Source: Faecalibaculum rodentium (GTDB lineage Bacteria > Bacillota_I > Bacilli_A > Erysipelotrichales > Erysipelotrichaceae). From it: a stretch of 32,000 nucleotides of DNA. Location: assembly GCF_001564455.1 (NCBI RefSeq), contig NZ_CP011391.1, positions 1,950,001 through 1,982,000 of the forward strand, written 5' to 3'. A model generated the notes under the pieces. That model made no database searches. It saw nothing but the letters and a program-made list of their open reading frames with translations, and had not been told where the DNA came from. Position numbers and translations under genes: made by a program. Positions 16,003-23,796 of the stretch are shown piece after piece (within the stretch, counting starts at the first letter, position 1; the number at the start of each line of letters is the position of its first letter).

Positions 16003-16236
16003 ATATACTCCTTCCATCTTCCGATAGTTTTGATTATATCATGTCGGCAGGGCGGAGAGTATCCTGTCAGGCGGGTTTATTGTACTAAATAATACAATAC
16101 AACCGTCCATCCTGCCTGGCAGGGAAACCCTGACAGGTCAGGCCGGAGGTTGTGAGGGGTGGTGGACTGCTGAAATGACGAGCCGGAAATGCCAGACAGA
16201 GAAGGCCATCAGACAGGCCTTCTTTGTTTCAGGCAG

Positions 16237-17013: not shown

Positions 17014-17490
17014 CTACACCAGTCTGCGCTCGAAGGCATCCGACGAAATGCCCTTTTCCAGAATCTCGCCCGCCCAGGCTTTCGCGCCGGTCAGGGAGTG
17101 ATCCTTGTAATTGCCGCACTCTTCGGCCCGGGTGCCCGGTACATCCTCCCATTCGGTTTCCAGCACCTGCTCCAGGGCATTCTTCAGGGCCTTTGCCGCC
17201 TGTTCCGGATCGCCATGGCCCCATGTCAGGAGATGGAACCCCGTGCGGCAGCCATAGGGGGAACAGTCAATGTAGCCCTCCAGCTGCGGACGCAGGTAGA
17301 GCGCCAGCAGGTGCTCCAGGGTGTGGATGGCACCCGTGGGGATCTCCTGCACATTGGGCTGTGTCAGCCGGACATCATAATTGGAAATCACGTCTCCGGC
17401 AGGACCGGTCTGTTCGCTGATGAGCCGCACATACGGGGCCTTCACCTTTGAATGGTCCAGGGTAAAGCTCTCGATGGTTGTATCGTTCAT
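17014..17490 (-). CDS. luxS: S-ribosylhomocysteine lyase (AI-2 synthase)
   Basis: 158 aa from the ATG at 17490. [15 protein letters not shown], metal-binding HTLEHL, CRTGFH. The upstream part of the ORF-track ORF (to 17565) has no support. Confidence 0.93.
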
Positions 17491-17570
17491 ATCACTGTTG
17501 CCTTTCCGACACCGTCCGCTCCCGGTGTCCTTCTTATCTATAAAGGAATCGCTTCGCCTCGGCACAGCCG

Positions 17571-18856: not shown

Positions 18857-19819
18857 TTATACCCGTGTATAGATATAGGCGCAGTTGCCCACGATATCAA
18901 CCTTGCCGCTGCCTGCGTCGATGAAAATCGAGTCGCCTTTGTTGGCATGCAGCTCGGTGCCGTCATTGGAGATGATCGCATCGCCTTCGATCATGATGAT
19001 CGAGCCGAAGCTTTCGTCATCCTGGTCAATGGTCACCTTGCCATGCACTTCCGTCACGAAGGTCGTGAAGTAGTTGCAGGTTGCCAGCATTTCGGTTGAA
19101 GCCTGGCCGTTGTCCACCTTCTCGCCGATGGGCTTGAAATCGGATTCGATGGGATCGAAAATCGACACATCCAGGGCCTTGTCAACGTGCAGCTCTCTGG
19201 GTTTGCCGTCCTTGCCCACCCGTCCGAAGTCATAGACACGGTAGGTGGTGTTGGAGTTCTGCTGGATTTCGCAGATCTGGATGCCGGCGCCAATGGCATG
19301 GATCGTGCCGGACTTGATGAAGAACACATCGCCTTTGTGGACCGGAACCGCCCGAAGCAGGTCGAGAACCGTGCCGTCTTCGATGGCCTTCCGGAATTCC
19401 TCCCGGTCAGTGTGGCGCTTTACGCCGAAATACAGGAAGGCGCCGGGTTCGGCATCCAGGATGTACCACATTTCGGTTTTTCCGGGCTCACCCTCCACAC
19501 GCCAGGCATATTCGTCATCCGGGTGCACCTGAATCGACAGCGGCTGCTTTGCGTCGATGAGCTTGATCAGCACAGGGAACCGGTTCATGTCTTTGCAGTC
19601 TGTGCCCAGCACCTGCCAGCCTTTGTCTTCAATGTACTGAGAGAGTGTCTTTCCGGCGTCATCGCCTGTCACGACTTCGCTCTGTCCGTCCTTGTGTGTG
19701 GACAGTTCCCAGCTCTCGGCCAGGGGATCCATGTCGGTTTTTTTATTGTAGAGTTCTTTCAGCTTGGTCCCGCCCCAGATGTAATCCTTGAACGCGGGGT
19801 GCAGTTTCACAATCGCCAT
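18857..19819 (-). CDS. manA: Mannose-6-phosphate isomerase, class I
   Basis: 320 aa. KDYIWGGTKL, LSIQVHPDD, cupin-type PMI signature, Firmicute-type short PMI. Confidence 0.9.
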   Translation of the reverse strand: MAIVKLHPAFKDYIWGGTKLKELYNKKTDMDPLAESWELSTHKDGQSEVVTGDDAGKTLSQYIEDKGWQVLGTDCKDMNRFPVLIKLIDAKQPLSIQVHPDDEYAWRVEGEPGKTEMWYILDAEPGAFLYFGVKRHTDREEFRKAIEDGTVLDLLRAVPVHKGDVFFIKSGTIHAIGAGIQICEIQQNSNTTYRVYDFGRVGKDGKPRELHVDKALDVSIFDPIESDFKPIGEKVDNGQASTEMLATCNYFTTFVTEVHGKVTIDQDDESFGSIIMIEGDAIISNDGTELHANKGDSIFIDAGSGKVDIVGNCAYIYTRV

Positions 19820-20011: not shown

Positions 20012-20041
20012 AAAAAAGCCTGCATGCGACAGACTGCAGGC
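20012..20041 (-). terminator. Intrinsic terminator directly after the 7TM/H-box gene
   Basis: Minus-strand GCCTGCA-GTCTGTCGCA-TGCAGGC followed by TTTTTTCTCC. The stem begins 12 nt after the TGA stop at 20055..20053. Confidence 0.7.
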
Positions 20042-20052
20042 AGGCGGATTTG

Positions 20053-20883
20053 TCAGGGAAGATCATCTGCGGAGCGGCTGTTTTGCGTCAGCCGCTCATG
20101 TTCCAGGGCGTTGATCAGATCGTGGCGGAACCGGCGCAGTTCCTGCCGGCTCAGATCGGGCTTGAGCAGCGCCTGCAGCTGCTTGCGGTATTCCTGCCGT
20201 ATGATCTGTCCGGCTCTGATGTCTGTCTGTCTTTGCATATATCGATGGAGAGAAACGGCAAACCACACATCGAAAGCCGCCAGCATGACCGTCATGAGTA
20301 CATACTGCTGCCAGGTCGCGGCATAACCACGGGGATAAGACAGACTGATGCAGTAGAAAGCCAGGATGGAAAGACTGGCCAGCAAAGACGTGAGGTACAG
20401 AAACAGTGTCTGACTGGGGCTCGAAGAGCGGACTTTTTTCAGGATCAGTCCGTAGATCAGCGCCATGATCCATGTGGCGAGCAGCTGTGCCAGTCCCAGA
20501 AGCCAGTGAGTCTGACCAAACAGCACATAAATGTCCTGGGAGAAAATGAACTGCATGTTCAGCAGATGGATCAGAATGTGAACCGGGATTTCACACAGCG
20601 GCAGCGGAAGCCAGTACAGGACAAAGCCGAGCAGCCGCTGCTTCAGGCTCAGTTCCGGGTTCATGACCCGAAACAGCAGCAGCAGAGCGATGCAGTTCAG
20701 GATATTTTTCAGCAGCGCCCAGTCCAGGGGACAGATGGCATCCAGCGGATACAGGATGAACAGAAAAAACCCGGCATATATCAGAAAGCCCCGACGTCCG
20801 GCATCGAAATACAGGCTCAGAAACCAGGACTGCACCAGGCACTGCAGGACCAGAACCAGCAGATGAAGCCAGTTGATGGTCAT
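20053..20883 (-). CDS. Polytopic (~7 TM) AgrC-like sensor module ending in a canonical H-box, with no ATPase domain
   Basis: 276 aa from the ATG at 20883 (RBS GAGGA). ATGA overlap with the upstream kinase gene. Seven hydrophobic segments are followed by ..LSRQELRRFRHDLINALEHERLTQNSRSADDLP-stop. RFRHDxxN is the HPK10/AgrC-type phospho-His box. The protein stops 20 aa after the His. Confidence 0.75.
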   Translation of the reverse strand: MTINWLHLLVLVLQCLVQSWFLSLYFDAGRRGFLIYAGFFLFILYPLDAICPLDWALLKNILNCIALLLLFRVMNPELSLKQRLLGFVLYWLPLPLCEIPVHILIHLLNMQFIFSQDIYVLFGQTHWLLGLAQLLATWIMALIYGLILKKVRSSSPSQTLFLYLTSLLASLSILAFYCISLSYPRGYAATWQQYVLMTVMLAAFDVWFAVSLHRYMQRQTDIRAGQIIRQEYRKQLQALLKPDLSRQELRRFRHDLINALEHERLTQNSRSADDLP

Positions 20884-21668
20884 GCTTCTTCCTCGAGCCA
20901 GAGAGTGGCAGTGAACCGGCACCGGCCGTTTTCCATGACACCCTTTAGCTGGCCTCCCTGCTGTGTGCAGAGATCTTCCAGGATCTGCAGTCCGTGTCCG
21001 TGACCAGGCCTGTTTTTGCTGGACAGACCGGGGGTGATGGCGGCGTTGTCAGAAACGGAGTTTTCGCAAATGCAGACCAGACAGTTGCGCCGCAGTCCGG
21101 CTTCCAGAGACACAAACCGGCGCTCCGACGGACACTGCGAGGCAGCCAGGATGGCATTGTCCAGCAGGTTTGTGAGCAGGCTCAAAAGAATGGCCGAATC
21201 CAGCGGCAGGTCTGCCGGAAGCGAGACCTGAAAATGACTGCGGATGTTCTGTTCTTTCATTTCTCTGGACTTCCTGAACAGGATGGCATCCGCCACCGGG
21301 TTGTCACAGCGGCTGACATACAGATCCGGAAAGTCCTCCTCCAGGTCCTGGATGACTGACGGGTGTTTCCGGATACGGAACCGTATGGCTTCGATTTCCT
21401 GACCGGTCTGCACCATCGCCGCGAGCTGCTCGAGCTCCATGTCCTTCAGTGTTTCCAGTGCCTGGGCCGATGCATCCCGGCGGATCATGGCCATGAGAGA
21501 CTTCATGAGCAGAAGACAGAGGAAGGCGCTGATTGCAAACAGGCCCAGGATGGCCACCTGTGCCTGTTCATAGCTCCAGCTGCGAAACAGAAATGGCGAA
21601 GCGCCGACCATGAGCGCTTCAGACACGAAAAACAGAATCATGTAAATCAGCGGCCTGCCCTTCAGCAC
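20880..21668 (-). CDS. GHKL-type (AgrC/HATPase_c_5-like) sensor kinase with only 2 TM and a degenerate H-box
   Basis: 262 aa. GTG start at 21668 with RBS GGGAGGAA. Two N-terminal TM segments. N-box LLTNLLDNAI, G-box GHGHGLQIL. At the position aligned to RFRHD it reads IRFRIRKH, so Ile replaces the canonical His. Confidence 0.8.
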   Translation of the reverse strand: MLKGRPLIYMILFFVSEALMVGASPFLFRSWSYEQAQVAILGLFAISAFLCLLLMKSLMAMIRRDASAQALETLKDMELEQLAAMVQTGQEIEAIRFRIRKHPSVIQDLEEDFPDLYVSRCDNPVADAILFRKSREMKEQNIRSHFQVSLPADLPLDSAILLSLLTNLLDNAILAASQCPSERRFVSLEAGLRRNCLVCICENSVSDNAAITPGLSSKNRPGHGHGLQILEDLCTQQGGQLKGVMENGRCRFTATLWLEEEA

Positions 21669-22396
21669 AATGATTCCTCCCGGAGCAGGAACCGGCTGTA
21701 GGACTGGCGGATTTCAGCCTGATGAGCTCTGGAGACCGGAATGCGCAGTCCGTTGGCAAGTTCGAATTCTGTGCCGTAGAAGGCAGCGGTCATGGAGTAA
21801 TTCACCACATAGCTGCGGTGACACTGCACAAAGCTGTCCGGCAGCTGTTCGAGCAGAGTGCGCAGATCTTCTCTGGCTTTCAGCACCCGGTTCCGGCAGG
21901 TGATGAACGTCCAGCGCCGGACCCGTTCCATGCACAGGATGGACGAAGGCTCCACCCGGTAGATGGCCGTTCCATCGTGGATCACCAGTGGTTTGGGCTG
22001 GTCCTGCAGCTGGCGCAGCGCCCTGGACAACGCGGCTTTCAGCCGCTGTTCCTTCTGCGGCTTGTATATGAAGTAGCAGTGTTCCACATCATAGACCTCA
22101 CAGGATTTTTCCAGGTAGGCGCTCATGAATATCACCGGCGACCCGGGGTCCAGGCGGTGAATGTATCTGGCCAGATCAATGCCGTCTTCCCCGTTGTCCA
22201 GGACAATGTCCATGAGAAATATCCGCTTCGTGCCGGCTGTCTGCGGCCCCTGCAGGAGCCGCTGCAGTTCCAGGGATCCTGTGACAGGACGAATGACCAG
22301 CTCCGGTGCCAGCTGCGAAAGGATCCGGATCATGTCTTCCCTCTGCAGCGGATCGTTTTCGCAGAGGACCAGCTCATATTGCTTCTTGTCTTCCAT
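21662..22396 (-). CDS. LytTR-family response regulator
   Basis: 244 aa from the ATG at 22396. Receiver domain (LVLCENDP .. IFLMDIVL .. MSAY) plus C-terminal LytTR DNA-binding domain (..FVQCHRSYVVN..). First gene of a three-gene operon. Confidence 0.88.
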   Translation of the reverse strand: MEDKKQYELVLCENDPLQREDMIRILSQLAPELVIRPVTGSLELQRLLQGPQTAGTKRIFLMDIVLDNGEDGIDLARYIHRLDPGSPVIFMSAYLEKSCEVYDVEHCYFIYKPQKEQRLKAALSRALRQLQDQPKPLVIHDGTAIYRVEPSSILCMERVRRWTFITCRNRVLKAREDLRTLLEQLPDSFVQCHRSYVVNYSMTAAFYGTEFELANGLRIPVSRAHQAEIRQSYSRFLLREESLC

Positions 22397-22646
22397 GCTT
22401 CCCTTTCCTGCAGAACCTTCCGGCAGCCGCATGCCTGGACAGCATGCAGGGAGTTGGATAGAGCCATTGGTCCTGCCAATGGGACCATTATACTGACTGC
22501 CTGCCGGATAAAACAGTCTGTTTTAATTCATTCATGGTGATGCTGCTGGTTTTGGGCAGATGATCCGCCGGCTCCGGCCAGGACGAAAACCTCTGACTGG
22601 CCTACAGGCAGGCACCGCTTTTTACCTCACGCCAGTTTGCCGGAAG

Positions 22647-22832: not shown

Positions 22833-23795
22833 GTGAATTGGACTATGAAGAATCTGAAGGGAAACCTGCGGTTCTGGCTGGTCATGATGGCGGTCTTTGC
22901 CCTGGGATCTCTGGTGTTCACAGCGGGAATCATCCGGCGAGAACATCTTGTGTTCGGGGCCACGTACATGACCATGAACAACCCGTTTTATCAGGTCATC
23001 AACACGGAACTGCGTAAGGCTGTCACAGAACACGGTGACAGTCTGGTGGTTCGCGATCCCCTCATGAATGCCGACCGGCAGATTGAACAGGTGGAGCAGT
23101 TTATAGCCGATGACGTGGACGGGATTTTTGTGAATCCCGTGGACTCCGTATCGCTGGGTCCGGTCCTGCGCCGGGCACAGAAGGCGGGGATCCCGGTGAT
23201 TGCCGTGGATTCCACGCTCAAGGATGACTCCATGCTGCTGTCGACGGTGATTTCGGACAACTACGATGCAGGCAGGCAGTGTGGCCAGGACCTGCTGGAG
23301 AAAACCGATTCCGCCAGGATCTGGCTCCTGCGGCATTCTGAAGCGGTCTCCGCGAGTGACAGGATCCGCGGATTTCTCTCAGTGGTGGAATCCGTCCCGG
23401 GGTATACAGTGATCGGGGAAGCCGAATGCGAGGGACAGCTCGAACAGGCCATGCCGGCCATGGAGGAACTCATTCGTCTGCACCCGGACGGATCGGTCGT
23501 GATGGCCCTCAACGACCCCTCGGCTCTTGGAGCCATCGCAGCCCTCGAGGAAGCGGGACTGAATTCCGTTCTGGTGTACGGCATTGACGGCACGCCGGAC
23601 ATGAAGAGCCGGATCGCAGTCCATCCCAGTCAGTTCGCGACAGTGGCGCAATCCCCAATCTCCATCGGTTCCATTGCGGCAAGCACGATGTATGAGCATC
23701 TGTCCGGAAAACGCGTGCCTCATTACATCCCTGTGGAAGTGTCCCTGATTGACGGGAAAACCATCGGCGGGTATTCCCTGACGGAGTGGCAGTGA
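22833..23795 (+). CDS. Membrane-anchored periplasmic-binding-protein (PBP type 1, ribose/sugar-binding-like) sensor component
   Basis: 320 aa. N-terminal uncleaved-looking TM anchor (FWLVMMAVFALGSLVFTAG), then a Peripla_BP-like fold (NNPFY..VDGIFVNPVDS..GIPVIAVDS..). The start may be the GTG at 22833 or the ATG at 22845. Its stop is 1 nt before the kinase start. Confidence 0.85.
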   Translation: MNWTMKNLKGNLRFWLVMMAVFALGSLVFTAGIIRREHLVFGATYMTMNNPFYQVINTELRKAVTEHGDSLVVRDPLMNADRQIEQVEQFIADDVDGIFVNPVDSVSLGPVLRRAQKAGIPVIAVDSTLKDDSMLLSTVISDNYDAGRQCGQDLLEKTDSARIWLLRHSEAVSASDRIRGFLSVVESVPGYTVIGEAECEGQLEQAMPAMEELIRLHPDGSVVMALNDPSALGAIAALEEAGLNSVLVYGIDGTPDMKSRIAVHPSQFATVAQSPISIGSIAASTMYEHLSGKRVPHYIPVEVSLIDGKTIGGYSLTEWQ

Positions 23796-23796
23796 C

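Follow-up and report, generated by a model that had tools for sequence, protein, structure and literature searches.

The stretch of Faecalibaculum rodentium DNA analysed here (32,000 nucleotides of contig NZ_CP011391.1, hereafter the window) carries on its minus strand an operon of three genes, encoding a LytTR-family response regulator (gene 1), a protein with two transmembrane (TM) helices and an ATP-binding domain (gene 2), and a seven-TM (7-TM) protein that ends soon after a histidine-kinase H-box (gene 3). Genes 2 and 3 hold complementary portions of a histidine kinase of the AgrC (HPK10) type: the ATP-binding protein lacks the canonical phosphoacceptor His, and the 7-TM protein has that His and no catalytic domain. 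The open reading frames (ORFs) run head to tail (21662..22432, 20880..21668 and 20053..20922). The regulator most likely starts at Met13 (22396), because its orthologues begin at the equivalent residue and an AAAGGGA Shine-Dalgarno sequence lies ahead, which gives a protein of 244 residues encoded at 21662..22396. Gene 2 (20880..21668, 262 residues) starts at a GTG that overlaps the regulator stop (GTGCTGA), and its N-terminus, MLKGR, is kept in orthologues; gene 3 (20053..20883, 276 residues) starts at the ATG at 20883, which overlaps the gene 2 stop codon as ATGA. An intrinsic terminator follows on the same strand at 20012..20045, with a GC-rich stem (20018-20045) and a U-tract (UUUUUU, 20012-20017; free energy -16 kcal/mol, z -2.9). 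The overlapping frames and the hairpin with its U-tract agree with an earlier reading of the bare sequence, hereafter the original prediction, which had described three translationally coupled minus-strand genes closed by a terminator.

The regulator and the two membrane proteins

Gene 1 had been taken for a LytTR response regulator, and Pfam matches to Response_reg and LytTR confirm it. In an alignment drawn from eight operons its receiver domain always has Asp63, Ser92 and Lys112 (counting from Met13), and the regulator therefore needs a phospho-His donor. The sole conserved His of the operon is held by the 7-TM protein.

Gene 2 encodes the putative catalytic subunit. It matches Pfam HATPase_c_5 (E 1.1e-9), and its family aligns in hhalign, with 98.9% probability, to residues 201-419 of a full-length HPK10 kinase (P0017), a region that takes in the last TM helix, the dimerization and histidine phosphotransfer (DHp) domain and the catalytic and ATP-binding (CA) domain. 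In an AlphaFold2 (AF2) model the CA region is predicted with per-residue confidence (pLDDT) of 85-93, and its best matches in the PDB are the kinase module of Staphylococcus aureus AgrC (6e52, E 7.8e-9) and the AgrC CA domain (4bxi, TM-score 0.74, root-mean-square deviation 2.7 A). This GHKL-type CA domain spans aa 121-258 (20895..21308, minus strand) and contains an N-box (LLTNLLDNAI, aa 164-173, 21150-21179) and a G-box (GHGHGLQIL, aa 222-230, 20979-21005). In an alignment (A9) of 11 catalytic partners with P0017, all rows share N167, D170, N171, N203, G224 and G226, and only the row of locus L007 lacks H223, so that ATP-binding residues have stayed fixed among catalytic partners of only about 25% sequence identity. 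The N-box and G-box are intact in 10 of the 11 partners. The exception is again the L007 copy (1302-2018, 238 residues, P0015), whose sequence diverges and breaks off at the G-box (ADMGRGWRS...), apparently through a frameshift or an assembly error; this copy may be inactive.

The membrane portion of gene 2 is small. Hydropathy places two TM helices at about aa 5-29 and 34-63 (21480..21656, minus strand), with a 9-residue loop between the two hydropathy segments, so that both the two helices and the full GHKL domain of the original prediction are borne out. A membrane-embedded acidic residue of the first helix, Glu17 (codon 21618-21620), is found in all 10 partners that have this helix and is replaced by Leu in P0017. 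Past the second helix, where P0017 carries its phosphoacceptor motif (RRLRHDMKNH), gene 2 reads IRFRIRKH (aa 95-102, 21363..21386, minus strand), and alignment to the LRHD of P0017 sets Phe97 at the canonical His position. Across the 11 partners this column reads F, A, D, L, S, E, E, T, E, E and E, with His in none. The degenerate motif and its lack of the canonical His are thus as originally described; the His of RKH to which attention had been drawn (His102) falls five residues past the canonical position and is not conserved, the aligned residues in the other partners being A, D, N, S, R, R, G, R, G and R. Moreover, about 16 residues of the DHp hairpin have been lost from the catalytic partner in the Faecalibaculum clade and in locus L013.

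The protein encoded by gene 3 has no Pfam match, and its family as a whole has no Pfam model. Of the profile searches that had been suggested for both membrane proteins, the one expecting an ATPase domain in gene 2 was successful (HATPase_c_5, above), and gene 3 yielded only a weak match to the NCBIfam AgrC model (E 1e-4) over profile positions 107-235, which correspond to the part from the sensor to the H-box. The 7-TM sensor domain occupies aa 3-213 (20245..20877, minus strand), as judged from hydropathy, charge distribution and the helices of the AF2 model; loops 1-2, 3-4 and 5-6 and the C-terminal tail carry basic residues, consistent with an N-out, C-in topology. The tail carries the H-box ELRRFRHDLINAL (aa 248-260, 20104..20142, minus strand), whose core, RFRHDLIN, is canonical for HPK10 kinases and includes His254 (codon 20122-20124). 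These results uphold the description of gene 3 as an ATGA-overlapped AgrC/ComD-like sensor of about seven TM helices with a textbook H-box; its stop had been put 20 residues after that motif, and the protein in fact ends at residue 276, 22 residues past His254. In a profile search of the PDB the H-box aligns weakly (E 0.64) to MRKFRHDYVN of S. aureus AgrC (6e52), and the profile of the sensor family aligns with 89% probability (E 2e-6) to residues 101-253 of P0017, from the TM region to the H-box. In the 24-member alignment of the family, only Gln14, Tyr232 and Arg253-His254-Asp255-x-x-Asn258 are invariant. Intramembrane polar positions are well kept: besides Gln14 (codon 20842-20844; 24/24), Asn60 is found in 21 and Glu98 in 20 of the 24 sensors.

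Could the 2-TM protein be a complete kinase after all? It might autophosphorylate on a non-canonical residue, with the 7-TM protein serving as an accessory sensor (as do LiaF, BceAB and SaeQ) or as an Hpt-like relay. Its two TM helices and 9-residue loop resemble those of intramembrane-sensing kinases, a class dependent on membrane-bound accessory proteins, and the window protein does have His102 near the canonical site. However, when the 11 partners are aligned, no His or other residue is conserved between the second TM helix and the CA domain, and the invariant H-box of the sensor would be left unexplained, for which reasons we regard such an atypical kinase as improbable. Intramembrane-sensing kinases proper (LiaFSR, BceS-BceAB, SaeS-SaeQ) likewise pair a 2-TM, minimal-loop kinase-like protein with a co-encoded polytopic, presumably sensing, protein, but they keep their own phosphoacceptor His and their accessory protein has no H-box, whereas here that His has passed to the accessory protein. 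As the 2-TM protein has no conserved His of its own, the operon does not belong with classical intramembrane-sensing kinases and their accessory proteins.

Distribution, synteny and selection

In an exhaustive profile search of 1.84 billion representative proteins, the 7-TM sensor family comprised 28 clusters, all with proteins of 315 residues or fewer, and none of these clusters held a fused sensor-ATPase form. The motif R-H-D-x-x-N is present in every one of the 24 full-length sensors, at identities down to 21%, and is followed by tails of 9-55 residues past the His, too short for a catalytic domain of about 130 residues. The same conclusion holds in the window itself, where manA (18857-19819) begins 233 bp downstream of gene 3 and leaves no room for a lost ATPase domain, as had been noted from the sequence. 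A word-indexed search with gene 3 found a handful of homologues at 50-55% identity, the full-length ones of about 270-290 residues; the sole named close homologue is from F. rodentium, and all four close homologues have the H-box at the extreme C-terminus. When the 24-sequence alignment was used instead, the word-indexed search returned eight matches. A scan of genome contigs added one near-identical Faecalibaculum metagenome-assembled genome, in which the gene 3 protein is 98% identical to that of the window. Named members of the family in public databases are labelled 'hypothetical protein'.

We compared 11 operons: that of the window, those of Faecalibaculum relatives (L001, L006, L007 and L015), those of Allobaculum / Erysipelotrichaceae bacterium 51-3 (L010 and L014), and those of uncultured loci with GC contents of 28-51% (L009, L011, L012 and L013). 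In all 11 a REC-LytTR regulator gene comes first, then a gene for an HATPase_c_5 protein (called at 219-285 residues), then one to three 7-TM genes, and the reading frames overlap or abut. The split arrangement thus spans at least two named genera and GC contents of 28-56%. A further member of the sensor family was matched, as a protein, in Dubosiella newyorkensis and is not among the 11 operons. That the pair would be conserved as two reading frames across genera, and not fused elsewhere, is therefore what we find. Had gene 3 been a fragment, close relatives might have carried a single intact AgrC-like gene and this locus a deletion scar; the opposite was found, the genes being split in every relative examined. 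A pseudogene or frameshift artefact of one AgrC gene is likewise ruled out by the position of the CA gene before the sensor gene, by the 11 conserved split operons and by the absence of a fused form.

The number of sensor genes varies from three in L013 (3958-6804) through two in L001 (6001-7627) and L006 to one in the window, and every sensor gene of the multi-sensor operons carries the H-box. Both the sensor and the CA genes are under purifying selection: the ratio of non-synonymous to synonymous substitution rates (dN/dS) comes overall to 0.17-0.36 for the two genes and 0.2-0.36 for the sensor gene, and single comparisons give 0.20 between the window and its 98%-identical relative, 0.23-0.52 among sensor pairs and 0.17-0.25 for the CA gene. 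Identity amounts to 45-69% in the TM domain, 57-71% in the sensor tail, 61-72% in the regulator and 50-66% in the CA partner. Hypervariability of the sensor domain in the manner of Agr pherotypes was looked for and not seen.

Two sensor genes contain an in-frame TAG in the juxtamembrane segment. In L006 (3249-3251) it has replaced a CAG in the second F. rodentium paralogue; in L015 (4157-4159) it lies in the sole sensor gene, on a metagenome contig at 2.3x coverage. Beyond each TAG the same frame continues through an intact conserved H-box tail to the normal stop, and these codons could mark recent pseudogenes, assembly errors or something else.

The operon might on this account be read as the decaying remnants of a duplicated AgrC-like kinase, with pseudogenisation under way and without a current signalling role, and the two TAG codons, the apparent frameshift in the CA gene of L007 and the 16-residue DHp deletion of the Faecalibaculum partners would all fit. 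We nevertheless give decay very little credence: the arrangement has been conserved over the taxonomic and compositional range just described, dN/dS indicates purifying selection, catalytic and phosphoacceptor motifs are invariant, and the window copies are intact and translationally coupled.

A proposed two-chain kinase and its closest counterparts

The two membrane proteins appear to be related to each other. The sensor and CA families can be aligned with each other from the last TM helix through the juxtamembrane helix (probability 50-71%, E 1.6e-4 and 3.8e-5), and this alignment sets Phe97 of gene 2 opposite His254 of gene 3. Judging from these profile comparisons, both proteins probably derive from HPK10 kinases and share a homologous juxtamembrane helix. 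Simple gene fission is an unlikely origin, since both proteins overlap in a homologous segment made up of a TM helix plus alpha1 and the CA gene comes first; the overlapping homologous segments and the CA-first order point instead to duplication of an AgrC-like gene followed by complementary loss.

Taken together, the H-box of all 24 sensors, the missing His of all 11 catalytic partners, the conserved CA motifs and regulator Asp, and the purifying selection on both genes support the original prediction of two complementary half-kinases. We put at roughly 0.6 the probability that they form a natural two-chain AgrC-type (HPK10) histidine kinase that phosphorylates in trans and is served by a LytTR regulator. 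The three proteins would then make up a phosphorelay equivalent in function to a single AgrC-type kinase with its LytTR regulator. The 7-TM protein would be the sensor, bearing the sole phosphoacceptor, His254, on a helix continuous with its seventh TM helix, and the 2-TM protein would be a membrane-anchored, His-less catalytic subunit. Both would assemble through their TM helices and parallel juxtamembrane helices, so as to place His254 beside the CA domain of the partner; His254 lies about 41 residues from the membrane and the former His position of the partner about 35, and hence at similar depth. The CA domain would phosphorylate His254 in trans, and the phosphoryl group would then pass to Asp63 of the regulator. 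The retained H-D-x-x-N may in addition let free sensor act as a phosphatase of the regulator. Glu17 of the catalytic subunit and Gln14, Asn60 and Glu98 of the sensor are candidates for a subunit interface or a ligand site. Such conserved polar positions in the membrane, together with the translational coupling and the homologous juxtamembrane helix, hint indirectly that the partners may form a complex.

Several observations weigh against this interpretation. AF2 models the sensor monomer with low confidence (pLDDT 65), and the DHp-like region of gene 2 is poorly predicted (pLDDT about 47-56). The sensor has one DHp helix only, and the heteromeric bundle that would result has a geometry without precedent; the loss of about 16 residues of the DHp hairpin from the Faecalibaculum-clade partner could equally mean decay. 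Two TAG-bearing sensor genes and one CA partner that looks frameshifted suggest that the system is dispensable in some strains. Finally, our analysis identified no ligand, peptide precursor or regulon.

The degenerate DHp of the CA partner also invites a different division of labour, in which the sole task of the sensor is that of a phosphatase, sink or decoy: the regulator would dock on its H-D-x-x-N helix and there be dephosphorylated or sequestered. The regulator would owe its phosphoryl group to a different kinase or to acetyl phosphate, and the ATPase protein, lacking the His, would serve either as a pseudokinase scaffold or as an ATP-dependent modulator. HDxxN is kept, with D255 and N258 invariant, as in HisKA-type phosphatase motifs, and HisKA-only proteins with such motifs have been noted (PMC3591291). 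A role confined to phosphatase activity would in principle require no invariant His, however, and neither the invariant ATP-binding residues of the highly diverged CA partners nor the constant co-transcription of three genes in fixed order would be explained. We consider a phosphatase or decoy unlikely, if the least unlikely of the alternatives to a two-chain kinase.

If the two-chain kinase is accepted, the operons with two or three sensor genes may be those in which several sensors share one catalytic subunit. A tentative extension, which we hold to be possible and somewhat doubtful, is a multiplexed receptor kinase: a single shared His-less engine would serve one to three interchangeable 7-TM subunits, whose signals would compete and converge on one LytTR regulator, with unengaged sensors acting as phosphatases and making the response switch-like. 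In such a receptor the signal from sensor to catalysis would pass between chains, through intramembrane and coiled-coil contacts, and not along one polypeptide. Since an operon may contain one to three sensors, inputs to the one output could be added in modular fashion, with several of them feeding one catalytic subunit.

The AgrC/HPK10 kinases (AgrCA, ComDE, PlnBCD, FsrCA) share with this operon a polytopic sensor of 6-7 TM helices, an (F/L)RHDxxN H-box, an HATPase_c_5 CA domain and a REC-LytTR regulator. AgrC has all of its domains on one chain, whereas here one protein combines the sensor with the His and the CA domain belongs to a separate 2-TM protein without a His of its own; the CA gene, moreover, lies ahead of the sensor gene, and there are one to three sensor genes per operon. 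The polytopic sensor, the H-box and the LytTR regulator of an HPK10 system are thus all present, but the CA domain is not on the His-bearing chain as it is in the single-polypeptide members of the class. As in a split kinase, the phosphoacceptor and catalytic domains are on separate proteins, each without the function of the other. The original prediction had seen no agrB/agrD-like genes, and we found none either, among the scanned flanking genes of the window or the called genes of the related loci; because there is no AgrB or AgrD, this is not an agr locus. Nor was a conserved small ORF that might encode a peptide precursor found upstream in nine operons.

Literature searches returned no description of a split HPK10/LytTR kinase, the closest systems found being CheA3/CheA4 of Rhodobacter sphaeroides and HK1/HK2 of Mycobacterium tuberculosis. 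In the M. tuberculosis system (HK1, Rv0600c; HK2, Rv0601c; TcrA), as here, three genes provide an ATP-binding protein and a His-bearing protein that serve one regulator. HK1 and HK2 are fused in some mycobacteria, and the phosphoryl group reportedly travels from HK1 to HK2 to TcrA (a result said to come from Shrivastava et al. 2007). HK1/HK2 belong to the HisKA/OmpR class and represent simple fission in the natural gene order, whereas the family described here is of the HPK10/LytTR class, has the reversed order and overlapping homologous segments, stays split in at least two named genera and has no fused form that we could find. HK1 and HK2 are listed with TcrA as their cognate regulator (PMC9321153).

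In CheA3 and CheA4, too, the phosphorylatable and catalytic domains are divided between two proteins. Autophosphorylation does not occur with either one by itself, and the pair phosphorylates the regulator; the His-bearing partner is also a phosphatase, and database surveys show further HisKA-only proteins (PMC3591291). Modelling of this bifunctional split kinase by Amin et al. 2013 predicted a switch-like response, or ultrasensitivity (PMC3591291). CheA3 and CheA4, however, are soluble, reside on chemoreceptor arrays and use an Hpt-like P1 acceptor, whereas the two halves described here are both integral to the membrane, with a DHp-type H-box helix as acceptor and with the His on the sensor itself. 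The present system differs from the known split kinases in its HPK10/LytTR class, in the membrane integration of both halves, in having the His on the sensor half, in gene order, in its apparent origin by duplication and in its variable number of sensors.

The regulators of the streptococcal HdrRM and BrsRM systems have no receiver domain and are held by a membrane inhibitor, without phosphorylation. The regulator here has, by contrast, a full receiver (Asp63, Ser92, Lys112) and an ATPase partner, and because of that receiver domain the operon is not a streptococcal LytTR regulatory system. HdrRM and BrsRM do consist of a LytTR regulator co-encoded with a membrane protein (PMC6193735), and to that extent they resemble the operon described here.

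The split arrangement, a variant of the split-kinase theme, is conserved in related gut bacteria. Its hosts Faecalibaculum and Allobaculum, and also Dubosiella, in which a sensor homologue occurs, can be cultured and belong to the rodent gut microbiota. Work on membrane histidine kinases normally deals with single chains, in which it is difficult to study sensing, helix rotation and catalysis separately. A split AgrC-type kinase would be a natural experiment in which trans-phosphorylation, the crossing of a subunit interface by a signal and the partitioning of kinase and phosphatase activities are open to direct study. The sensors also define an unannotated protein family. As this family has no Pfam model and its named members are labelled 'hypothetical protein', genome surveys of two-component systems would score these operons as a His-less 'kinase' and an orphan.

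Flanking genes and minor features

A candidate -10 box of the operon promoter, TATAAT, can be read on the minus strand at 22487..22492, about 90 nt upstream of the regulator start and with a poor -35; it is preceded by AATTAAAACAGACTGTTTTATCCGGCAGGCAGTCAG, a block that is partly conserved in L001 (window 22487-22530, minus strand). A consensus promoter scan did not pick up this box, and a look for LytTR direct-repeat boxes upstream of the regulator brought up nothing convincing, only the TATAAT with its poor -35 and the partly conserved block. The region could be an activator-dependent, autoregulated promoter.

Downstream of the operon, manA is followed by mutY and luxS (17014-17565). We found no evidence for a link to luxS, which lies beyond manA and mutY and had not seemed obviously linked when the locus was first read; related contigs that reach that far show the same manA/mutY neighbours. 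In relatives, genes for an ABC transporter (SBP_bac_1, ABC_tran, BPD_transp_1) separate the kinase operon from manA, at 8134-12038 in L001, 3900-7804 in L006 and 3446-7353 in L007, and these genes are missing from the short interval between gene 3 and manA in the window (233 bp only).

Upstream of the operon lies a divergent module (22833-27049, plus strand) that encodes a Peripla_BP_4 sugar-binding protein, a HisKA_3 kinase, a GerE-type regulator and an SBP_bac_1 solute-binding protein. Its first three genes are syntenic in L001, and the module, unrelated to the operon, looks like a separate sugar-sensing two-component system. Elsewhere in the window, long ORFs overlap on opposite strands, at 13564-16092 (plus) and 13606-16017 (minus) and again in the region 27296-31996 (minus). 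The first of these, an 842-residue plus-strand frame, has no Pfam match at E 1e-5, and the last, a 1566-residue minus-strand frame, overlaps two long plus-strand ORFs.

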